Source of the DNA: Escherichia phage ECO71P1
Direction: 5' to 3' (one strand)
Sequence record: OP172789
Length of the DNA stretch: 64,000 bases
Numbering within the stretch: position 1 is the first letter of the stretch; each line of letters begins with the position of its first letter. Under the pieces are notes generated by a model. That model had not been told where the DNA came from and searched no databases. It saw nothing but the letters and a program-made list of their open reading frames with translations. Positions 10,153 to 24,235 of the stretch are shown here, piece by piece. The position numbers and the translations under genes are program-made.

Positions 10153-10998
10153 GTGAATATGGCCGAAGCAATCAAAGTATTATCTAAAGAAGAAAAACAA
10201 GCAGCTGCAGCAGAACGTCGTCGCGTGGCTGAAGAAAAACGCCTGGCTAAAAAGAAAGAAGCCGAAGAAAAACGCCAGAAGCGTGAGCAGGAAAAACAAG
10301 CCAAGCGTGAAGAAGCTGCACTGAAACGCAAGCAGGCCGCTGATGAGAAAGCACAGAAACGTGCTGAAGAAGCAGCGAAGAAAGCCAAAGAGCGTGCAGA
10401 AAAAGCTGCTGCTAAGAAAGCAGAGCGTGAAGCCGCTAAAGCAGCAAAAGAAATCGAAAAGGCAAAGGCTAAAGAAGAAGCCAAGCGCCTGAAAGCTGAA
10501 CAAGCTGCTGCTAAGAAAGCAGAGCGTGATCAAGCCCGTGCTGCAGCGAAGGCCGAAAAAGAGAAGGCCAAAGAAGAAGCTAAAGCGAAACGCAAGGCAG
10601 AGCGTGAAGCTGCTAAGATTGCGGCTAAAGAAGCTGCAGAAAAGCAGAAAGAACAGCGTAAGAAAGAAGCTGAAGAACGTCGCAAAGCCATCGCAGAACG
10701 TAAGGCTGCTAAAAAGGCAAACGGTCAGCGTCGTGCAAAAGCAACCCACTTCATCTACACTGGCAATGGCCTGAGCCAGCCGCAAGAGCATTCCACCCGT
10801 GGACGCGTTCTGGCGGCGATCAAAGAAGGCGAAGTTGGCGTGGCGCAGTCTATCGATGAGCTGGGCGAAAAAGTTAAAGATCAACTGTTTGGCGCTTCCG
10901 TTCGCTCCTACCTGAGCAAGCTGGAAGAGATGGGCCACATCGAGTTTGTCGATGTTGAATCCAACGAAGATGCCGAAGACGGTGATCAAGCGGAATAA
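10153..10998 (+). CDS. Lys/Ala/Glu-rich charged repeat protein with C-terminal globular domain
   Basis: About 180 aa of KAE low-complexity repeats (AAKKAERE-type), then about 90 aa non-repetitive tail; AAGGA RBS. Confidence 0.6.
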   Translation: MNMAEAIKVLSKEEKQAAAAERRRVAEEKRLAKKKEAEEKRQKREQEKQAKREEAALKRKQAADEKAQKRAEEAAKKAKERAEKAAAKKAEREAAKAAKEIEKAKAKEEAKRLKAEQAAAKKAERDQARAAAKAEKEKAKEEAKAKRKAEREAAKIAAKEAAEKQKEQRKKEAEERRKAIAERKAAKKANGQRRAKATHFIYTGNGLSQPQEHSTRGRVLAAIKEGEVGVAQSIDELGEKVKDQLFGASVRSYLSKLEEMGHIEFVDVESNEDAEDGDQAE

Positions 10999-11025: not shown

Positions 11026-11052
11026 GACCCACACTTGTTGTGGGTCTTTTTT
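11026..11052 (+). terminator. rho-independent terminator
   Basis: GACCCACACTTGTTGTGGGTC hairpin followed by TTTTTT. Confidence 0.65.
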
Positions 11053-11130: not shown

Positions 11131-12126
11131 ATGAACATGAAACAACCTGTAATGATTATCGGCGGCGGACTGGCAGGACTTATCACCGCTTGTCACTTCC
11201 CGAACTCTGTTGTGTACGAAGCAGGGGAACGAGCGCAACAGCACAAGGCGCTGCTACGCTTTCGCAGCGAAGAAGTAAGCCGTATTACCGGAATCCCTTT
11301 TAAGGCTGTGACAGTTGACAAGGCTGTGTATTTTCGCGGCCACTACTACCACGACCATTGCCCAATCAACCTTGCCAATATGTATTCCATGAAGGTCACC
11401 AATCAATTTGGCAGCCGTTCAATCATGAAGCTTAAGACTGCAACGCGTTATATTGCGCCTGATGACTTTTATGATCAGCTTGTCGACAAACTGGGTGACC
11501 GAATATTCTTTAATACTCCGGTTGATACTCTTTGCGGCTATAGCGAGACGCCAATCATCAACACGTCGCCGCTGCCAGTCATGATGAAGCTGGCTGGGAT
11601 TGATCAAAAGCTTGATTTCTCATTTGATAAAGCAAACATTCGTGTTTACCGCTTTAAGATTAAACGTAAGTGTGATTTGTATCAGACAATTTACTTCCCT
11701 GACTACTCCGTCAGAACTTACCGCGCATCAATTACTGGTGACACGCTTATCATTGAAACAATTCCTTTGGTCAGCGTGAGTGAAGCTGCAGTTGAAGCCG
11801 CTGGCGGCATCACTCGTTACCGTGACATGAAGCTGCGCGCAGAAGTCGACGAAGTGTTGACAGCCTTTGGCCTCTCATGGAGCGACATCGCTCTTGAAGA
11901 AGTTGAAAAGGTCGACCAGAAATATGGCAAGATTGTCGACATTCCGAAAGACTTGCGACACGCCCTACTCCTGCAGCTGACTATGGATTTGAACGTGTTC
12001 AGTGTCGGTCGATTTGCTACCTGGCGCAACATTTTGCTTGATGACGTTGCCCATGACCTTGTTGAAGTTGAAAAACTCATCAAAGCAAATAACTATCAAA
12101 AATTTGCTTATATTGCTAATAAATAA
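11131..12126 (+). CDS. FAD/NAD(P)-binding Rossmann-fold protein, function unknown
   Basis: N-terminal VMIIGGGLAGL dinucleotide-binding motif. Confidence 0.5.
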   Translation: MNMKQPVMIIGGGLAGLITACHFPNSVVYEAGERAQQHKALLRFRSEEVSRITGIPFKAVTVDKAVYFRGHYYHDHCPINLANMYSMKVTNQFGSRSIMKLKTATRYIAPDDFYDQLVDKLGDRIFFNTPVDTLCGYSETPIINTSPLPVMMKLAGIDQKLDFSFDKANIRVYRFKIKRKCDLYQTIYFPDYSVRTYRASITGDTLIIETIPLVSVSEAAVEAAGGITRYRDMKLRAEVDEVLTAFGLSWSDIALEEVEKVDQKYGKIVDIPKDLRHALLLQLTMDLNVFSVGRFATWRNILLDDVAHDLVEVEKLIKANNYQKFAYIANK

Positions 12127-12191
12127 TTTGCTTTCTGCTTCAATGGGCGTATACTTTAATCATTGAAGCAGAACTCATAGAGGAAACGAAA

Positions 12192-12638
12192 ATGAAACGA
12201 ATCACTGGAATCGCGCTTGCCGCTACTGCTATTCTCGGCACCATGTATATGGAAGCAACTGAAGCTGCCATCCGCACTTCCGATTCAGTCGCTGTTTACG
12301 ATTGCGAAGCGATGGACGGTAAGACCGCAGCAACGACTGGTGCGAAGATTACCACTTACATCGGTGTGAATGAGCAAGAAGGTCTGAATATTCAGATTCA
12401 GGGATTCACAGGGAAAGGTGCCAACCGTACTCCGTGGATGCAACGTTTCACTTTCGTCCAGCCTCGTTCAACTGGCGGCTTTATCAATCTGATTGGTGAA
12501 AACCGTTCTGGTGCAGAAATCTTTACATCAATGAGTTCTAATAATGAACCAAAGAAAAGTTTTCAGTTGCTTTATAACGCACAATTCGTTTATCATTGCA
12601 CCTTCTCTGGTGATCAGCAACTAGTGAATTACCGTTAA
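12192..12638 (+). CDS. secreted protein (signal peptide), function unknown
   Basis: MKRITGIALAATAILG hydrophobic leader; GAGGA RBS. Confidence 0.5.
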   Translation: MKRITGIALAATAILGTMYMEATEAAIRTSDSVAVYDCEAMDGKTAATTGAKITTYIGVNEQEGLNIQIQGFTGKGANRTPWMQRFTFVQPRSTGGFINLIGENRSGAEIFTSMSSNNEPKKSFQLLYNAQFVYHCTFSGDQQLVNYR

Positions 12639-12651
12639 TAGGACAATTAAA

Positions 12652-13425
12652 ATGAAAGTTGAATTAATTCGATACACCCAAGATGCACTTGACCTTTTGC
12701 TGGAAACAAAGAACACGCGCATGACTGGTAAGCCTGTCTCTGAGATGACGGAATCAGAGAAGCAAGAGCATTGGCGCTACATGCTTGATACAATCAAGTC
12801 ACCTTTTGACTTTGTGGACTATATCTTTGACATAACCGTTGTTTCAAAGAATATGACTCATCAGATGGTCCGAACACGCGCAGGCGCATATCAAGAACGC
12901 ACCAGTCGCGCTCAGGAATCTTCTGCATTTGATGCGATTCGCCCTAAAGCATTTGAGCACCCTGACGGCTCCACAAGCGAGCTTGGCGAGAAGTGGGATG
13001 ATGCGATGGCGACTATTGATGCCATATATCAAGAGCTTCGCGCGGCTGGCGCAGAGATTCAGGATGCGCGTGCCGTGTTGCCTTCTAATATGCAAACGCA
13101 TATCATGGCAAAGTTCAACTTGCGCACGCTGCAGCAGATGGCGTCAAACCGCTTGTGCACGCGCACTCAAGGCGAGTATCAAGAAGTATTCCGCGCAATG
13201 GTTGCGGAAGTCCTCAAGGTGCACCCGTGGGCTAATCCTTTGCTGCAGCCGCAATGCATCGGTATGGGTAAGTGTGCGTTTCCTCGTCACGGTAAAGCCC
13301 ATTGCCCTTGGTATCGTGATTGGATGGATACCACTGCACAGCAGGAAGAGTTGCGCATTCAGTTTTGGGATGCCGCGCCAATCACCAACAATCCAGTTGC
13401 TAAAGATGGAGTATCAAAAGGATGA
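12652..13425 (+). CDS. ThyX-like (flavin-dependent thymidylate synthase family) protein with variant signature
   Basis: HQMVRTRAGAYQERTSR resembles ThyX RHR-X7-S region but with RTR in place of RHR. Confidence 0.45.
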   Translation: MKVELIRYTQDALDLLLETKNTRMTGKPVSEMTESEKQEHWRYMLDTIKSPFDFVDYIFDITVVSKNMTHQMVRTRAGAYQERTSRAQESSAFDAIRPKAFEHPDGSTSELGEKWDDAMATIDAIYQELRAAGAEIQDARAVLPSNMQTHIMAKFNLRTLQQMASNRLCTRTQGEYQEVFRAMVAEVLKVHPWANPLLQPQCIGMGKCAFPRHGKAHCPWYRDWMDTTAQQEELRIQFWDAAPITNNPVAKDGVSKG

Positions 13426-14294
13426 GTTTTAAAAATAACCAAATCTTGAACGTATTCGACCTTGACGGAACTCTGTTTGATGACCGTTGGCGCTTAGACC
13501 GCATCAAGATTGCAGGTCCGTTGTCAGACTATGATGACTATCACAGCGGTATTGGTTATGATCAGTTCTATCCTCACATTGCAGCAGCAGTAGAGTCAGC
13601 ATCTCTTCGCGGTGAGGCGGTTGAATATTGGACTGCAAGGCCAGAAAAATACAGACAAGTGACTTTTGAACGTCTGGACAATGTTTTTCCTTTTGATGAA
13701 TTTACAATCAAGATGAGAGACTCTGGCGACAAACGTCCATCAACTATTATGAAATCTGAATGGCTATCGCACGCTTTGCGGCACGGCGATTATCGAATCA
13801 TCAATATATTCGACGACCGACAAGACGTACTCGCGCGGATGCAAGATGAAGCCTTGTATTATAATTCCGTTGCTCAAAATAAAATCGCTTTTACGTTTAA
13901 TCTTTGCAAGGCAGGTGAAGTGGTGCAACAATTAGCAATTGATCCAAGCGCAACGGGGCAAGAAGAGACTAAGGCTGTGGAAATTGAACAATCTCCGGCA
14001 ACCGCCGCCGATATTCTTGATGCGATGGCAGCAACCTTCCGTGAGCGCAACGCTGTCTATGGCGATAACGCTGTGATGGTAGGCCAGGTTATGCAGGTGC
14101 TTTTCCCTAATGGCGTAACGTTGAAAACGCCGGAAGACTACCACATGTGGCATCTGTTCGAGCTTAAGATTGTCAAGCTTACACGCTTTGCAATCAGCGG
14201 CCTGAAGCACGAAGACTCTATACACGACGATGGTGTTTACAGCGCCATGTGTGAACGTCTTGTCAACACCCATAATATTAATTTCAATAAATAG
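13422..14294 (+). CDS. HAD-superfamily phosphatase domain protein with extra C-terminal domain
   Basis: N-terminal VFDLDGTLFDD (DxDGT) motif; 290 aa. Confidence 0.5.
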   Translation: MSFKNNQILNVFDLDGTLFDDRWRLDRIKIAGPLSDYDDYHSGIGYDQFYPHIAAAVESASLRGEAVEYWTARPEKYRQVTFERLDNVFPFDEFTIKMRDSGDKRPSTIMKSEWLSHALRHGDYRIINIFDDRQDVLARMQDEALYYNSVAQNKIAFTFNLCKAGEVVQQLAIDPSATGQEETKAVEIEQSPATAADILDAMAATFRERNAVYGDNAVMVGQVMQVLFPNGVTLKTPEDYHMWHLFELKIVKLTRFAISGLKHEDSIHDDGVYSAMCERLVNTHNINFNK

Positions 14295-14359
14295 TTTACT
14301 TGTGCGTTTCGATGAGTTATATTTATCTCATCGAAACGAAGTCCAAAAAGGATAAATAA

Positions 14360-15043
14360 ATGAAAAAAGTAATTGTTGTAACTGGCTGCAATTCCGGTCT
14401 TGGTAAATCCATTTTTGACACCCTTGGCGCTTACGGTCACGAAGTTGTCGGTATTGATTTGGACAACGGTTATGACATCCGTAACGCGAAACAGATGAAA
14501 GAGCTTCTCTCTCAATACGACGTAGAGGGCTTGATCAACTGCGCTGGCGTCAACTCCAACAACTGGTTTGAAGACGTTAACTACGAAGAGTTTAATCGCG
14601 TTATGCACACCAACGCCTTCTCTTTCGTTAACACGACTCAGGCCGCGCTGAAAAGTCTTATTGACAACAAAGGTTTTGTGATCAACATCGTTTCCAACGC
14701 TGCGCATATTCCTATGACGTCCAGCTTGTGTTATAATGCTTCCAAGGCCGCTGCGCTTATGATTAGCAAGCAGATGGCTCACGAGCTTACGCCTAAATAC
14801 GGGATCACGGTCTTCTCTATTAGTCCTAACAAGTTGCGTGGCACTGGTATGTCTAAACAGATTGAAGATGCTGTTTGCGCGACTCGCGGCTGGACTCCTG
14901 AGTATGCTGCTGAATACCAGAAAAAGGCGTTGATGAATGGATTGGAGACTGAGCCGCAAGTAATTGCTGACTTCATTCGCCATATCTTAATTACGGGCGC
15001 ATGGCGCTTTATGTCTGGTACTGATATTCCATTTGGGAAATAA
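14360..15043 (+). CDS. short-chain dehydrogenase/reductase (SDR) family oxidoreductase
   Basis: VTGCNSGLGKS cofactor motif and YNASKAA catalytic YxxxK. Confidence 0.65.
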   Translation: MKKVIVVTGCNSGLGKSIFDTLGAYGHEVVGIDLDNGYDIRNAKQMKELLSQYDVEGLINCAGVNSNNWFEDVNYEEFNRVMHTNAFSFVNTTQAALKSLIDNKGFVINIVSNAAHIPMTSSLCYNASKAAALMISKQMAHELTPKYGITVFSISPNKLRGTGMSKQIEDAVCATRGWTPEYAAEYQKKALMNGLETEPQVIADFIRHILITGAWRFMSGTDIPFGK

Positions 15044-15046
15044 ATC

Positions 15047-15262
15047 ATGAACAAAGCCTGGGTAGCGGTAATCGGTTTAGTGCTTCTTGTTGTATTAGGA
15101 TACACAATCAAATTTGAAGTTCCAAATCCTGTTGAGCCTGACAAAAAGATTGTCGTTGAAGTCCCAGGCGCTAAAGGTGAATTACCAAAACCTAAATTTG
15201 AAGTTGTCACACCCGCTCCTGAAAAGCAACAGGACGAAGACAACACAGTAATTAATCAATAA
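15047..15262 (+). CDS. small membrane-anchored protein
   Basis: N-terminal VAVIGLVLLVVLGY hydrophobic segment; 71 aa. Confidence 0.4.
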   Translation: MNKAWVAVIGLVLLVVLGYTIKFEVPNPVEPDKKIVVEVPGAKGELPKPKFEVVTPAPEKQQDEDNTVINQ

Positions 15263-15282
15263 TATTTAATTAAGGAAACAAA

Positions 15283-15834
15283 ATGCCACACTTTAAAATT
15301 GAACAAATCGCCCTGTCAATTCCAGATGCTCAGCGTGCACAGGATTTTCTGGCTAAAATCGGCCTGACAGAATGGTTCCATGATCATGTTGTTGCTACTG
15401 GTCGCGTATTTGAAAATGACGAGTTTAAAGGTCGTCGCGACGATTGCACCAACGAAGCTGACTTGCGATTCAACTATCAGGCTGGCAACGGCACCGATGG
15501 CGGCGCTGGTAAGCCTCTTGAGCTTGAAATCCTTGACTACACAATGGGTTGCAACTGGATCAACGAAAACATCGACATGCTTGATGCGCACGATAATCAG
15601 GTCAGCCATCTTGGCATGCATGTGACTGCCGCTGAACTTGCTGAATGGCGTAAGTTCTTTAAAGAAGAAGGCATTCAGGTTGCGCAGGAAGTCGTAACTG
15701 ACTCTCACACCAACCCAAATATTGCTGGTCAGCGTCGTTACAACTATGTGATCTTTGATACGCGTGAAATCATCGGTGTCGACCTTAAGTTCATTGTGCG
15801 GTTGAATCAAGACGGTACTCCGTACACTGCATAA
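15283..15834 (+). CDS. hypothetical protein, possibly glyoxalase/VOC-like fold
   Basis: 183 aa; weak resemblance only; AAGGAAA RBS. Confidence 0.35.
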   Translation: MPHFKIEQIALSIPDAQRAQDFLAKIGLTEWFHDHVVATGRVFENDEFKGRRDDCTNEADLRFNYQAGNGTDGGAGKPLELEILDYTMGCNWINENIDMLDAHDNQVSHLGMHVTAAELAEWRKFFKEEGIQVAQEVVTDSHTNPNIAGQRRYNYVIFDTREIIGVDLKFIVRLNQDGTPYTA

Positions 15835-15849
15835 CGAATCGTGAATCTG

Positions 15850-15875
15850 TGGCCGTCCTAATGGGCGGCCTTTTT
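15850..15875 (+). terminator. rho-independent terminator
   Basis: GGCCGTCCTAATGGGCGGCC hairpin followed by TTTTT. Confidence 0.65.
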
Positions 15876-15888
15876 GTAGGAGGCCAAT

Positions 15889-16431
15889 GTGTTATTTCTT
15901 CCTTATGACTTCGAAACAACCGGATTAACCGTGCACCCGAAAGCGCCGCTTGGGATGCAGCCGCGCCCTATTGAATTTGCAGGCCTGTTGACGGACGGCA
16001 AAGAGATTCTTGAAACGTTCGAGTTCATAATCAACCCTGAAATCGTGATTGAAGAAATCATCACAAAGATTACCGGATTAACAAATGAAGACCTTGAGTG
16101 CAATCCGCCATTCATCAATTTTGTTCCGCAGCTAAAAGAAATCTTCAAGAAGACTGATGCCACTATCGCGCACAACCATGCGTTCGATAAGAACATTCTT
16201 GATTATGCACTACAGCGCGAAGGACTTACACTTGATGATGTTAATTTCCCAGAAATAAACATCTGTACAGTTGAGCAAACCTTGCCTATTTTTGGCCGAA
16301 GAGTTAAGCTTCAAGAGCTGTATGAATTATATTTCGGAAAATATGAACAGAAGCACCGTGCATTAGACGACGTAATATTACTGCACAAAGTCTGCCAACA
16401 AATTGGCGTATATGACATCTGGAGTAAATAA
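15889..16431 (+). CDS. DnaQ-like 3'-5' proofreading exonuclease
   Basis: Exo motifs DFETTG, HNHAFD, HRALDD; GTG start after AGGAGG. Confidence 0.8.
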   Translation: MLFLPYDFETTGLTVHPKAPLGMQPRPIEFAGLLTDGKEILETFEFIINPEIVIEEIITKITGLTNEDLECNPPFINFVPQLKEIFKKTDATIAHNHAFDKNILDYALQREGLTLDDVNFPEINICTVEQTLPIFGRRVKLQELYELYFGKYEQKHRALDDVILLHKVCQQIGVYDIWSK

Positions 16432-19328
16432 TGTTTCCACAATTGAGAGTTCGCAGCGGTTACACGTTCAAAGAAGTATATGGACGGCATCCTGAAATTA
16501 TAGCACGGCTCAAAGAGTTGGGCTGCGAAGTCGCGGCATTAGTTGATAACAATACATGGGGTCACGTTCGCTGGGAAAAGGAATGTCAGAAGAATGATAT
16601 CAAGCCTATGTTCGGCATGGAAATTCCAATCATCGACCCTGATGCGGACCCGAAAAAGGGATTCAAACCGAAGGCTTGGATATTGGCGCTTGACCTGAAA
16701 TCTTTTTACAACGCTACGACACTTGCAACACAGCGCGGCGGACTGACCCGTGCAGAGTTCGGGGCGCTGGATGGCGTCGTTAAATTCTGTGGCGGGGCTG
16801 TGGAGTTGCTGCGACCAGAGGACTACGATTATATAGACGTCAACCCATCATCGTTCCTTTTGGCCAAGCGCCAGGTATTGGCTCACCGCAACAACGGAAG
16901 GCCGCTGGTTTTAACCGGATACAACCACATGCCTTCACCTGAGCACGTTGACTTTGCTTATGCTTGGGAAGTGCGCGACACGGTCAAGCCGCACTGCATC
17001 GTTGACGCGGAAGACTTGTGCAAACAGCTTAAAGGAATCCTGACCGAAGATGAGTTGAATCAAGCAACGGCCAATGCGGTTGATATTGCAAACGGAATCG
17101 TTGGGCTTGGCCTGAAGCTGCGCAAGGCACCGATTATCCACCTTGCTGGTGACATGGTAAAGCTTGCTCGTGAGGGTATGGAGTACCGCCTTAAGGCAGG
17201 TCACATCAAAGAATGGACTCAGGAATACGAGGACCGATTCAACGAAGAGATTCACCAGATTCAGCTGAAAGACTTTGACTCATACTTTCTGGTGGTAGCG
17301 GACCTTGTACGATTCGCAAAAACAAAAATGCTTGTCGGACCCGCTCGCGGCTCATCGGCTGGTTCACTGGTTTGTTATTGCCTCGGCATCACGGAAGTTG
17401 ACCCAATCCCGTATAAGCTGCTGTTCGCCCGATTCATCGACGTAAGCCGCGCCGACCTTCCTGATATTGATATTGACTTTGAGGATACCAAACGCTATAT
17501 GGTGTTTGATTACCTTAAAGAAAAATACGGCGAAATGAACGTTGCAAAGCTTGGCAACATCAACACTCTTAAGGCCAACTCAGTAATGGCTCAGGTTGGT
17601 AAGAAATTCAACATTGGATATCACGAAACGGCCAACATTAAAAACGCATTGCTTGAATACTCATCTGGTGACGCCCGTTATGGTCACGGCCTGGAGGATA
17701 CCTTTGCAACAACTACCACGGGTCAAGAGTTTGTGGCGAAATATCCTGACGCCGCGCGTTGCATGGGTGACCTTGAGATTCACCCGTCCCACACAGGTGT
17801 TCACGCAGCGGGAATCATCGTGTGTAATGATCCAATCTCTGATTACTGTACTGTAACGGCGGAAGGGATTGCGCAAATTGATAAGCCTGACAGCGAATAC
17901 CTTAACCTTTTGAAGCTTGATGCATTGGGTCTTCGCACCCTCGGAATCATTTCTGATACTGGCGTGATAGACGCTGAAACGCTGTACGGAATCAAGCTTG
18001 ATGATCAAAGCGTCCTTGACATCCTTAACGAAAACAAGATGTCAGGAATATTCCAGTTTGAAGGCGACGCTGTACGCTCAGTAACCAACTTTGTGCACGT
18101 TGATAACTTTAACAAAATCGATAACCTGACAGCACTTGGCAGACCTGGCCCGTTGTCATCCGGTATGGCCCAGAAATACATCGAACGCGCGGCAGGACGT
18201 GCGCCGATTGAGTACGACGTGCCGCAGCTTGAGCCGTACTTAAAAGAGACTTACGGCGTGTTTCTTTACCAAGAGCAAATCATGGCCGTGGTTAAAGAGA
18301 TTGGTTCATTCGACTGGGCGAAAACATCAGCTGTACGTAAGGCAATGTCAGGTCGTAAGGGTGAAGAATACTTTAACAAGCTTGGCGAAGACTTCGTTGC
18401 AGGCGCAATAAATAACGGCGTACCGGAAGCGGATGCAAGAAAGCTTTGGCAGGCGATGGCGACGTTCGGGTCATGGGGCTTTAACAAGTCACACTCCGTG
18501 TCATACGCGGTCGTGACTTACTGGACCTTGTGGCTTAAACGACACTACCCGCTGGAATTTGCCGCTGCTTGCTTACGCGCTGCTAAGGACGAAGACCAGA
18601 CGATTGCGATATTACGTGAACTTGCAAAGGAAGGCGTGGATTATGTGCCAATCGACCCTGATCACTCTTCAATGAACTGGACCATCGCTAACGGAAAGCT
18701 AATCGGCGGCATCATGAACGCTAAAGGGTACGGAATGGTAAAAGCGATGAAGTACATCGAAGCACGTGAAGCCGGAACCTTAACGCAAAAACAAAAGGAC
18801 GCATTGGCCAATGCTGAAGTCAAATACGGCGACCTTACAGAGATGCACACCAAGTTCGGTTGGGCGTATAATGACCCCTATCTGATTGGCGTTACTTCCG
18901 GTGCTTCAATACGCCAGATGAAGGAAGTCGGTGATGACGAGCGTGCAATAGTGATCGGCAAGCTGACCAAGAAAGTGCTGGCTGACGAGAACGAAGCAAC
19001 ACGCATCCGTAAACGTCTTGAGCGCGGCATTTATACAAAGCACGGCAAACTTAAAAAGGGTCTTCAAGCTGATGGTCGCTACGCAGAGTTTGACCAGTAT
19101 GGAAACAAGCTTGAGACTCAGTTCATTGACCTTATGTGCAAGGACGATTCGACCGACTCGCCAATGCGCTTCAGGATTCGCCCAGAGAAGTTCCAGAAAT
19201 ACGGTAAATACATTGCAGAGAACGTCGGGAACGGCGCATTCTTCCTGATGAAAGGCCGCAAGCTTGAAGGTATTGACATGTTTATCGTCGACGTGATCAA
19301 ACAGGTGTATCCAGATGGCAACAAATAA
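16431..19328 (+). CDS. DnaE-type (Pol III alpha / family C) DNA polymerase catalytic subunit
   Basis: PARGSSAGSLVCYCLGITEVDP...PDIDIDF and GFNKSHSVSYAVVTYWTLWLK match hallmark DnaE segments. Confidence 0.85.
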   Translation: MFPQLRVRSGYTFKEVYGRHPEIIARLKELGCEVAALVDNNTWGHVRWEKECQKNDIKPMFGMEIPIIDPDADPKKGFKPKAWILALDLKSFYNATTLATQRGGLTRAEFGALDGVVKFCGGAVELLRPEDYDYIDVNPSSFLLAKRQVLAHRNNGRPLVLTGYNHMPSPEHVDFAYAWEVRDTVKPHCIVDAEDLCKQLKGILTEDELNQATANAVDIANGIVGLGLKLRKAPIIHLAGDMVKLAREGMEYRLKAGHIKEWTQEYEDRFNEEIHQIQLKDFDSYFLVVADLVRFAKTKMLVGPARGSSAGSLVCYCLGITEVDPIPYKLLFARFIDVSRADLPDIDIDFEDTKRYMVFDYLKEKYGEMNVAKLGNINTLKANSVMAQVGKKFNIGYHETANIKNALLEYSSGDARYGHGLEDTFATTTTGQEFVAKYPDAARCMGDLEIHPSHTGVHAAGIIVCNDPISDYCTVTAEGIAQIDKPDSEYLNLLKLDALGLRTLGIISDTGVIDAETLYGIKLDDQSVLDILNENKMSGIFQFEGDAVRSVTNFVHVDNFNKIDNLTALGRPGPLSSGMAQKYIERAAGRAPIEYDVPQLEPYLKETYGVFLYQEQIMAVVKEIGSFDWAKTSAVRKAMSGRKGEEYFNKLGEDFVAGAINNGVPEADARKLWQAMATFGSWGFNKSHSVSYAVVTYWTLWLKRHYPLEFAAACLRAAKDEDQTIAILRELAKEGVDYVPIDPDHSSMNWTIANGKLIGGIMNAKGYGMVKAMKYIEAREAGTLTQKQKDALANAEVKYGDLTEMHTKFGWAYNDPYLIGVTSGASIRQMKEVGDDERAIVIGKLTKKVLADENEATRIRKRLERGIYTKHGKLKKGLQADGRYAEFDQYGNKLETQFIDLMCKDDSTDSPMRFRIRPEKFQKYGKYIAENVGNGAFFLMKGRKLEGIDMFIVDVIKQVYPDGNK

Positions 19329-23126: not shown

Positions 23127-23645
23127 ATGATAGAAAGAATTGTACCGTTACTGAAGATTCTTGCCCTTGTTGGCGCGTTCGCCGCTGGGTCATACGTTGA
23201 AGACCTTAAGCAAACCAACGCATCACTGGCCAAGGATAATCAATATCTTACATCGCTTAATGAGCGTAAGGACAAGATAAATGTACTCGAAGAGCAAATT
23301 GCATCTTTACAGGTTGAATCGGCATCGGCATATGAGAAGGGTCGCCAGGAAGCGCAACTGGTTGCTGATGACACTATTGCTCGTTACAAGTCTGGGAATA
23401 TCAAGCTGCGCGAGCAACTCAGCTGCTCCCGTGAATTACTCAGGAGTGTGCCCGACTCTGCGACCACTGGACGCCTCTCTATCCCAGAAGGAAACTGTGG
23501 ACTATCAGAAGAGGATGTCAGATTTCTTGTTCAGTTCGCCGCAGAAACAAACCGATTAAAAGAGAAGGTTAATAGCTTGATTGATACTTATAATCAGGCT
23601 AAAATTAAAATCGACCAATTCAACGCATCAAAGGAAAATAAATGA
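23127..23645 (+). CDS. putative i-spanin (Rz-like): N-terminal TM anchor plus coiled coil
   Basis: IVPLLKILALVGAFAAGSYV TM then heptad-like region; contains an embedded +1 frame lipoprotein ORF. Confidence 0.4.
   Translation: MIERIVPLLKILALVGAFAAGSYVEDLKQTNASLAKDNQYLTSLNERKDKINVLEEQIASLQVESASAYEKGRQEAQLVADDTIARYKSGNIKLREQLSCSRELLRSVPDSATTGRLSIPEGNCGLSEEDVRFLVQFAAETNRLKEKVNSLIDTYNQAKIKIDQFNASKENK
23332..23559 (+). CDS. putative o-spanin (Rz1-like) lipoprotein embedded in the i-spanin gene
   Basis: Embedded ORF with LLLVTSLGISSC lipobox-like signal; start codon uncertain. Confidence 0.35.
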   Translation: MRRVARKRNWLLMTLLLVTSLGISSCASNSAAPVNYSGVCPTLRPLDASLSQKETVDYQKRMSDFLFSSPQKQTD

Positions 23646-24235
23646 ACCAGATTTATGCAAACATTCGCCAGTGGGCTTCTGACCGTAACATCATCAAAGG
23701 TTGCGACCTTAAGGACCAATACCCGAAGCTTATTAGCGAGTTTGGGGAGTTGACCGACCACGTGGATCAACTCCATGACCTTGTGTTCTTTGACCCTGAA
23801 ATCGGATATACAGAGCAGGCCATCTGTGATTTACAAGCCGCAATCAAGGACGACATCGGCGATTGCCTTGTTGTGTTAACTATCCTTGCCGCGCAAAATG
23901 GTGCAAAAATCGAAGACATCAACGGCGGCGGTTGCGCCGACAAAGGTGCCCACCCTCACTCGTTTATCCTTCGCTTGGCAAAGACTCTCGGACGGCTTGG
24001 TGATGCCATTGCTAAAAATCAGAGTATGGATATTGATGTCACCATCATGGCCGCAGTCGATTACCTTTCCGGCGTAGCACATGATTATGGACTTCGACTG
24101 TCTGATTGCGCTCAGGCCGCCTATGAAGACATCAAGGACCGTAAAGGCGTGATGTACAACGGAACGTTCATCAAATCGACTGATCAGGCTTACGCCTATG
24201 CGCTGGAACAAGTGATGAATAAGGAGTTTGAGTGA
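23642..24235 (+). CDS. MazG-like nucleoside triphosphate pyrophosphohydrolase (all-alpha NTP-PPase)
   Basis: ISEFGELTDHV and DDIGDCLVVLTILA resemble MazG EExGEL / DxL motifs. Confidence 0.45.
   Translation: MNQIYANIRQWASDRNIIKGCDLKDQYPKLISEFGELTDHVDQLHDLVFFDPEIGYTEQAICDLQAAIKDDIGDCLVVLTILAAQNGAKIEDINGGGCADKGAHPHSFILRLAKTLGRLGDAIAKNQSMDIDVTIMAAVDYLSGVAHDYGLRLSDCAQAAYEDIKDRKGVMYNGTFIKSTDQAYAYALEQVMNKEFE

Follow-up and report, generated by a model that had tools for sequence, protein, structure and literature searches.

A virus-restricted ThyX-like enzyme and its partner flavoprotein in Escherichia phage ECO71P1 as candidates for the first step of thymidine hypermodification

Escherichia phage ECO71P1, a Wifcevirus, carries an open reading frame (ORF) for a ThyX-like protein of 257 aa at 12652..13425 (+ strand) of the 64,000-nucleotide stretch analysed here (sequence record OP172789; hereafter the window). 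The protein consists of a Thy1 domain (aa 5-193) and a Cys-rich C-terminal extension. It is proposed that this protein and a flavoprotein encoded upstream of it act as a pair that forms a C5-carbon bond on dUMP and so feeds the thymidine hypermodification of the lineage, for example as 5-hydroxymethyl-dUMP (5-hmdUMP); judging from sequence comparisons and models, we would give this proposal an even chance of being right. The ThyX fold and substrate site are present, several residues that define the ThyX motif are not, and it would thus be wrong to class the protein as an ordinary ThyX.

The relationship to ThyX, which the first-pass annotation had claimed from the letters alone, is borne out by family searches and by structure. 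Pfam Thy1 (PF02511) matches the protein with E=2.6e-30 and 106 bits (cutoff 24.8), the entire profile being covered by aa 5-193, and PHROG 85 'thymidylate synthase' matches it at 1.7e-35. An AlphaFold2 model built on 73 homologues (pLDDT 94.6) resembles Thermotoga maritima ThyX (1o26 and related entries) with TM scores of 0.73-0.77 in Foldseek. The gene is annotated as thymidylate synthase in every database; against the NCBIfam equivalog TIGR02170 (thyX) the protein scores 73.7 bits, under the cutoff of 87.9. The start codon of the ORF is ATG, with AGGA 11 nt before it, and the window DNA is 93-97% identical to the Wifcevirus phages WFH, FEC19, ECML-117, kaset and Mansfield.

The variant ThyX motif HQMVRTRAGAYQERTSR spans residues 70-86 of the phage protein (12859..12909, + strand), as placed by the sequence and by phmmer, profile and MAFFT alignment; residue numbers such as H53 and H79 are those of T. 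maritima ThyX unless stated otherwise. R74-T75-R76 of the phage protein (codons cga-aca-cgc, 12871-12879) aligns with R78-H79-R80 of T. maritima ThyX in the phmmer and profile alignments and in the MAFFT mapping. The alignment with characterised enzymes that had been named as a check thus upholds the ThyX relationship, and Thr does stand in place of the RHR His, as had been noticed. RHR occurs in all 23 solved ThyX-family sequences among the matches listed. For the ThyX motif R-H-R-x7-S the phage protein reads R74-T75-R76-x7-T84, Thr84 occupying the X7 position (S88 in T. maritima) and Ser85 the X8 position, and its Arg86 is the equivalent of R90. Further upstream, the segment I48-K-S-P-F-D-F54 (12793..12813, + strand) aligns with H53-E-T-P-F-E-H59, with Ile replacing the folate- and flavin-stacking His (H53) and Phe replacing H59. 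The 'extended ThyX motif', reportedly described by Ulmer et al. in 2008, includes the catalytic residues H53 and Y91; the phage protein has I48 at the first, A87 at the second and T84 at S88, and the same replacements hold clade-wide. This confirms the protein as a Thy1/ThyX-fold enzyme that departs from the canonical signature.

The replacements come as a set comprising H53, H59, H79, N85, Y91 and W181, and the aligned sequences fall into two discrete states: a canonical one, H53-H59-H79-Y91-W181, and a remodelled one, I53-F59-x79-(A/T/V)91-G181, in which N85 is additionally changed to A or Q and S88 is S, T or A. Each of H53, H59, H79, Y91 and W181 is retained in 76 of 77 cellular sequences and replaced in 80-83 of the 83 sequences associated with the partner flavoprotein. 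All 120 close homologues, with identities down to ~52%, have RTR; the contigs that encode them are 68-72 kb long and belong to phages of Wifcevirus, Myosmarvirus and Pbunavirus and to Erwinia, Pantoea and Burkholderia phages. When 1.84 billion representative proteins were searched exhaustively, 1862 relatives came up; of the best 108 that could be aligned, 62 have T at position 79, 28 have H, 7 have S, 6 have N and 2 have Q. RTR as a functional switch is ruled out by the finding of T, H, S, N or Q at position 79 inside the remodelled clade; because this position is relaxed in an otherwise fixed signature, the alignments make RTR a marker of the remodelled sub-family and not a catalytic switch. 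The earlier suggestion of altered chemistry, including hydroxymethyl transfer, stands as a serious possibility, but the His-to-Thr change itself is not its cause. Two distant homologues carry insertions at the ThyX-motif region, a true intein (PF14890) in P0166 and an insertion of ~170 aa at the same place in P0160.

What has been kept is as consistent as what has been lost. The residues that bind and activate dUMP are retained (Q75, R78, R80, R90, R147, R174 and E182), and Q71, R74, R86, R140 and R167 of the phage protein, which correspond to Q75, R78, R90, R147 and R174, are invariant in the 73-108 aligned sequences. Most FAD contacts (S55, E58, N163 and R165) are retained as well, and R78 and R80 also count among the FAD contacts; a flavin cofactor and dUMP as substrate are therefore expected. 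In solved structures the RHR residues hydrogen-bond the FAD phosphates and ribityl, according to a review (PMC6514825). Y91 and S88 are reported to be strictly conserved and to act as acid catalysts when the flavin-carbinolamine hydroxyl leaves, and H53, which Y91 and N85 keep in position, stacks on both reduced flavin and the folate pterin (PMC11940539; PMC8316439). Y91A slows carbinolamine consumption more than 100-fold, mutation of Y91 slows flavin oxidation ~1000-fold, and Y91A and S88A cripple methylene transfer in the T. maritima enzyme (PMC11940539; PMC8316439).

The remodelled enzymes are found in viruses. A scan of prokaryotes, with one genome per species and a search pattern that stops just before position 79 and is thus unbiased for H versus T, gave 76 canonical RHR enzymes on chromosomal contigs among its best 80 loci, their hosts including Bathyarchaeia, Planctomycetota, Deferribacter, Thermincola and Methanomassiliicoccus. 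The other four loci (L004-L007), which looked like RTR-type enzymes in cells, proved to be phage contigs binned in metagenome-assembled genomes, with a phage exonuclease/DnaE replication module. RTR is present in 79 of the best 80 loci from IMG/VR. In a neighbour-joining tree of 63 dereplicated sequences the remodelled enzymes form one clade with a long stem and a bootstrap of 99/100, and their signature is fixed across 40-100% identity. On the tree and the scans, RTR-type ThyX belongs to a virus-restricted, monophyletic ThyX sub-family. The nearest cellular relatives, at 27-33% identity to the ThyX-like protein, form a 'four-Cys' branch that shares with it the THQLVR...SQR motif context, H74, D145, R178, a Cys two residues after R174 and a C-x5-C-x6-9-C tail. 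The cellular enzymes differ in keeping H53, H59, H79, Y91 and W181 (76/77), in lying on Mb-scale chromosomal contigs and in having no flavoprotein neighbour in any of the 76 RHR loci.

This neighbour, the partner flavoprotein, is encoded at 11131..12126 (+ strand), comprises 331 aa with an N-terminal GxGxxG, and falls into PHROG 4828 'unknown function'. It has no Pfam or NCBIfam match even at E<=5, GLF included, and no match to a PDB sequence beyond the GxGxxG segment. Its model (pLDDT 84.9) has the two-domain FAD-oxidoreductase fold of UDP-galactopyranose mutases (UGMs), renalase and amine oxidases, with TM scores of 0.55-0.65 and 10-13% identity. For UGM the values are TMq 0.65 and 12% identity, comparable to those for renalase and the amine oxidases, and with the protein outside the Pfam family its likeness to UGM is one of fold only. 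It shares with these enzymes the GxGxxG FAD-binding Rossmann fold at the N-terminus and the two-domain build, and with renalase a similar size; the low identity, the missing family match and the lack of any sign of UDP-sugar binding set it apart. The two genes belong together in both directions. The flavoprotein gene lies upstream, typically directly adjacent, in 79 of 80 viral loci retrieved via the ThyX-like protein, and the ThyX-like gene lies downstream in 71 of 75 loci retrieved via the flavoprotein, three of the four exceptions ending within ~800 nt. In L004 the genes overlap, in Wifcevirus and Pbunavirus small ORFs are inserted between them, and the pairing persists though other neighbours turn over and the two genes lie anywhere from 18 to 2870 nt apart. 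Each protein has ~2,000 homologues, virtually all of them viral.

The connection with DNA modification comes from sister phages. Virion DNA of F8 and 14-1, two phages of the sister genus Pbunavirus, was earlier thought unmodified; it has about a quarter of its T replaced by thymidine derivatives with masses of 362 and 390 U, and it resists enzymes with TG-containing sites (PMC12191111). Pbunaviruses are without the genes normally used to predict hypermodification, and the report names no biosynthetic genes and leaves ThyX unmentioned (PMC12191111). Both F8 and 14-1 carry the pair, the ThyX-like proteins being 94% and the flavoproteins 97% identical between the two phages. No ThyA-family gene was found by tblastn with E. 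coli ThyA in the complete 14-1 genome, the window or the ~235 fetched loci. Because these sister phages carry a sugar-type thymidine without known pathway genes and carry the pair, the pair is the best candidate for supplying the precursor. The masses of 362 and 390 U correspond to 5-hydroxymethyldeoxyuridine (5-hmdU) + tetritol - H2O and 5-hmdU + pentose - H2O, respectively, and they are also isobaric with deoxyuridine (dU) + pentose - H2O + 2H and dU + hexose - H2O. In the known thymidine hypermodifications a thymidylate-synthase-family product is made at the nucleotide level and is then converted sequence-specifically in DNA (PMC5889632; PMC8989533), so that a partial, motif-specific replacement of T is compatible with a nucleotide-level first step. 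The proteins 14-1 gp71 and F8 gp070 (L239 17997-19301 and L240 17894-19090) are 57% identical in surroundings that are 92-100% identical; they were rejected as determinants of the adduct type, being coiled-coil/Zn-ribbon proteins that lack an enzyme domain, are missing from Wifcevirus and have no counterpart in the window.

We propose that the ThyX-like enzyme would stack the uracil nucleotide on reduced flavin and form the C5-carbon bond, while no longer running the canonical folate/carbinolamine-to-methyl route alone. The pair would then supply a C5-substituted deoxyuridylate for the hypermodified thymidine, the simplest expected product being 5-hmdUMP, with the attachment of a sugar carbon instead of methylene as an isobaric alternative. 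In more general terms, the pair may constitute a flavin-dependent pyrimidine C5-alkylating system that provides the missing first step of hypermodification in Pbunavirus and, by inference, in Wifcevirus, Myosmarvirus and many uncultured DnaE phages, a proposal whose prospects we put a little short of even. Such a system could take two possible forms. It may be the first ThyX-family dUMP hydroxymethylase, making 5-hmdUMP, or, more radically, it may use an aldose instead of the folate methylene and join the C1 of the sugar to C5 of dUMP; the latter would combine the flavin N5-sugar iminium chemistry of UGM-type enzymes with a C5 attack of the ThyX type on an electrophile bound to flavin. If the pair does seed the modification, the HAD phosphatase and the MazG-like pyrophosphatase described below would be candidates for control of the nucleotide pool, and the Wifcevirus-specific SDR and VOC genes would be candidates for tailoring. 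In the literature searched we found no link of the ThyX family to phage hydroxymethylation or hypermodification, no mention of the remodelled signature or the partner, and no report of dTMP synthesis or thyA complementation by a member of the sub-family.

Several points weigh against this proposal. About three quarters of T is canonical, so that a source of dTMP is still needed, and the annotation is most simply read as pointing to a phage dTMP synthase. A hydroxymethylase working by the same route would also be handicapped, because Y91 and S88 assist methylene transfer itself and not only the final reduction. No fusion of the flavoprotein and ThyX-like genes was found, the long homologues holding inteins or extensions without a family match; the partner fold is generic (TM 0.55-0.65); and the DnaE-encoding phages may share this gene order in part through common descent. 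The TG-specific pattern calls for a DNA-level enzyme, and none was found among the module genes or in the comparison of 14-1 with F8. No 5-HMUDK-like kinase or glycosyltransferase was recognised in the Pfam and PHROG scans of the module or in the Mansfield and 14-1 annotations, which included no profile aimed at 5-HMUDK and leave many ORFs without an assignment. The Pbunavirus result itself is a 2025 preprint that gives masses and the TG motif, not structures or genes (PMC12191111).

The main rival is a two-component dTMP synthase, a reading we consider credible and somewhat improbable, in which the ThyX-like protein makes dTMP, the partner reduces flavin or oxidises NAD(P)H so that H53, H79, Y91 and other residues could drift, and the hypermodification of the lineage is made from T in DNA by other genes. 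The intact dUMP-binding and -activating residues and most FAD contacts agree with it, as do the annotation in all databases, the position of the gene in a replication/nucleotide module with exonuclease, DnaE, ligase and MazG, its status as the only thymidylate synthase in the genome, and a partner that resembles NAD(P)H-binding renalase as closely as UGM. The Pbunavirus data also fit, with ~75% of T canonical and a motif-specific modification that implies a DNA-level step. However, the Y91A and S88A mutations cripple methylene transfer in T. maritima, yet A, T or V is natural at position 91 here, and the folate-stacking H53 is gone. A design of this kind has never been seen in cells despite abundant cellular ThyX, and a stand-alone canonical RHR ThyX works well in many other phages. 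The two-component reading also leaves the C5 adducts unexplained, in genomes without a dioxygenase, a radical-SAM enzyme or a ThyA-type hydroxymethylase.

An ordinary stand-alone ThyX with neutral changes, next to a merely syntenic flavoprotein such as a UGM acting on host glycans, is in our view unlikely. Thr could hydrogen-bond the FAD phosphates as His does, and five residues (T, H, S, N and Q) are tolerated at position 79; gene order in phages often goes back to inheritance and not to selection, and the annotators of phage Mansfield named the neighbour UGM on the basis of HHpred. Drift does not readily account for six near-invariant residues that changed together on one long branch and were then fixed over 40-100% identity, nor for a flavoprotein link that is near-universal both ways and outlasts the turnover of neighbours such as the HAD gene (38 of 80 loci) and of the spacing. 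The naming of the neighbour as UGM, for its part, meets a protein without any Pfam match, GLF included, and with 10-13% identity to UGMs. A different substrate or reaction has still less in its favour and we hold it to be very improbable; it might be C5-methylation of dCMP or UMP in the manner of PolB, oxidation of dTMP, or return of 5-hmdU to thymidine. The ThyX fold does already host the UMP methylase PolB, which is among the structural matches, the active-site loop has been rewritten, and the step from 5-hmdU to thymidine in hypermodifying phages has been stated to be unexplained (PMC5889632). Against this, the arginines that recognise uracil (R90 and R174) have been kept, as have the contacts to phosphate and deoxyribose, which favours dUMP as the substrate, and the adducts found by experiment are on thymidine, cytosine modification not being among those reported (PMC12191111).

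The invariant Cys residues at first looked like a second novelty of the protein. Cys169 lies in the core helix NRLCTRTQGEYQ (codon at 13156..13158, + strand), two residues after R167 (R174 in T. maritima), and C202-x5-C208-x9-C218 (13255..13305, + strand), modelled with pLDDT ~97, lies in the C-terminal extension. All four are invariant in 119 of 119 homologues, which suggests a putative Cys4 metal site (Zn or Fe-S) formed by C169 and C202/C208/C218; the motif was not found in the solved ThyX sequences among the matches listed. The four Cys are also present in cellular RHR ThyX (L008-L083) and are missing from a Cys-less RTR sister group that has the partner. Because the site is common to the cellular RHR branch and absent from the Cys-less RTR group, it was ruled out as a sign of new chemistry, and the comparison points to an ancestral, probably metal-binding feature.

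The genes from 11131 to 15834 form one unit that encodes the flavoprotein, a 148-aa ORF, the ThyX-like protein, an HAD phosphatase, an SDR and a VOC-fold protein. It is bracketed by terminator-like hairpins at 11026..11046 (+ strand), just upstream of the flavoprotein gene, and at 15851..15870 (+ strand), after the VOC gene; these are the two strongest hairpins of the + strand, and terminators are annotated at the same places in phage Mansfield. The 148-aa ORF (12192..12638, + strand) lies between the flavoprotein and ThyX-like genes, has a signal-peptide-like N-terminus and has no match in Pfam, PHROGs or NCBIfam. The HAD-type phosphatase (13422..14294, + strand), whose start overlaps the stop of the ThyX-like gene (ATGA), has a DLDGT motif and a PNKP phosphatase domain at aa 11-142. 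Its C-terminal ~120 aa (13917-14291) form a helical domain without a family match that is kept in Pbunavirus gp58/gp057, the acidic low-complexity linker differing in length between F8 and 14-1. The phosphatase is present in 38 of 49 Cys-type viral loci and in 38 of 80 viral loci overall. The FabG-like short-chain dehydrogenase/reductase (SDR; 14360..15043, + strand), found inside the unit in Wifcevirus, Mansfield included, and the weak VOC/glyoxalase-fold protein (15283..15834, + strand), the product of the last gene, are absent from the Pbunavirus modules examined; both could be tailoring enzymes. In L004 (7178-7675) a small class-I SAM-methyltransferase-like protein is encoded directly after the HAD gene; it is without a homologue in the window and shares motifs (e.g. 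DLDHK.FFTEETW.TLF) by eye with 14-1 gp13 (L241 6707-7207).

Downstream of the unit lie the genes for an epsilon-like 3'-5' exonuclease (15889..16431, + strand) and a DnaE-type DNA polymerase (16431..19328, + strand). In most viral loci the pair likewise precedes genes for these two proteins, the polymerase being of the DnaE (Pol III alpha) type, and this arrangement defines a large, mostly uncultured phage group that uses a bacterial-type replicase. A MazG-like nucleotide pyrophosphohydrolase (23642..24235, + strand), which adjoins the DNA ligase and is conserved in Pbunavirus, is a possible supplier of dUMP or excluder of dTTP/dUTP. Between a RecD-like helicase and the flavoprotein, a 281-aa protein of PHROG 4765 (10153-10998) is kept in Pbunavirus as gp67/gp066, with 52% identity over 110 aa. 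The remaining module genes, including this ORF, the 148-aa one and the C-terminal part of the HAD gene, yielded nothing when scanned against Pfam, NCBIfam and PHROGs at permissive settings.

The window has 16 EcoRI, 7 EcoRV and 3 EcoKI sites despite the resistance of Wifcevirus to most restriction systems, which is an indirect hint at modified thymidine in Wifcevirus DNA. Site avoidance as the cause of the restriction-modification (RM) resistance was rejected for EcoRI (16 sites observed and 18 expected); sites for EcoRV (7 against 18 expected) and EcoKI do occur, though in smaller numbers than expected. McrA was excluded as the K-12 factor that restricts Wifcevirus, the ΔRM host being already without it. 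By single-base-frequency expectation, the window is poor in GATC (109 vs 247), CCWGG (75 vs 182) and SacII sites (0 vs 9.7) and rich in HindIII sites (51 vs 18) and CAGCAG (65 vs 26). DNA of the Pbunavirus JG024 is cut by SacII, whose site is without T; papers characterising Pbunaviruses repeat the annotation only.

Few phages are used more than Pbunaviruses in therapy against P. aeruginosa, and their hypermodification was found recently without its biosynthetic genes being named; the conserved pair offers a two-gene candidate for the precursor. If the proposal of C5-carbon bond formation is right, the ThyX family, a family of antibiotic targets, would gain a new reaction, and the signature I53/F59/x79/non-Y91/G181 together with PHROG 4828 would predict hypermodified phage genomes from sequence. 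It would also explain the resistance or sensitivity of the carrier phages to RM and END-type defences. If the pair is a plain dTMP synthase instead, it would be the first two-component flavin-dependent thymidylate synthase (FDTS), working without the 'strictly conserved' Y91 and H53.

The nearest characterised system is canonical ThyX/FDTS (T. maritima TM0449 and M. tuberculosis Rv2754c; PF02511, TIGR02170), with which the ThyX-like protein shares the fold (TM ~0.75), full Thy1 coverage and the residues Q75, R78, R80, Y84, R90, R147, N163, R165, R174, Q180 and E182. It differs from canonical ThyX in the changes H79 to T, H53 to I, H59 to F, N85 to Q/A, Y91 to A and W181 to G and in T for S88, and also in its 60-aa Cys-rich C-terminal extension, its flavoprotein neighbour (79/80), its score below the equivalog cutoff and its restriction to viruses. 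The proposed functional analogue is the ThyA-family dUMP hydroxymethyltransferase that seeds thymidine hypermodification in phages SPO1, PhiW-14, SP10, ViI and M6, where, as in the Pbunavirus data, only part of the T is replaced and the replacement depends on sequence. That enzyme has an unrelated fold and mechanism, with a Cys nucleophile and no flavin, and no homologue of it was found in the genomes and loci searched here; its companion genes, 5-HMUDK and aGPT-Pplase, were not found by annotation or by Pfam and PHROG scans, no 5-HMUDK profile being run. A one-residue signature in phage ThyA homologues (RB69 gp48 and DLP3 gp80) predicts synthesis of 5-hydroxy-dCMP, which is then glycosylated; these enzymes differ from the ThyX-like protein in having the ThyA fold, a cytosine substrate and addition of oxygen rather than carbon (PMC13326640). 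Within the ThyX fold, PolB of polyoxin biosynthesis (PDB 4p5a/4p5b), one of the structural matches, is a UMP/dUMP C5-methylase that acts outside housekeeping dTMP synthesis. PolB differs from the ThyX-like protein in that it still methylates and works alone, and it altered its specificity in the substrate-recognition loops, not in the residues that are changed in the ThyX-like protein.

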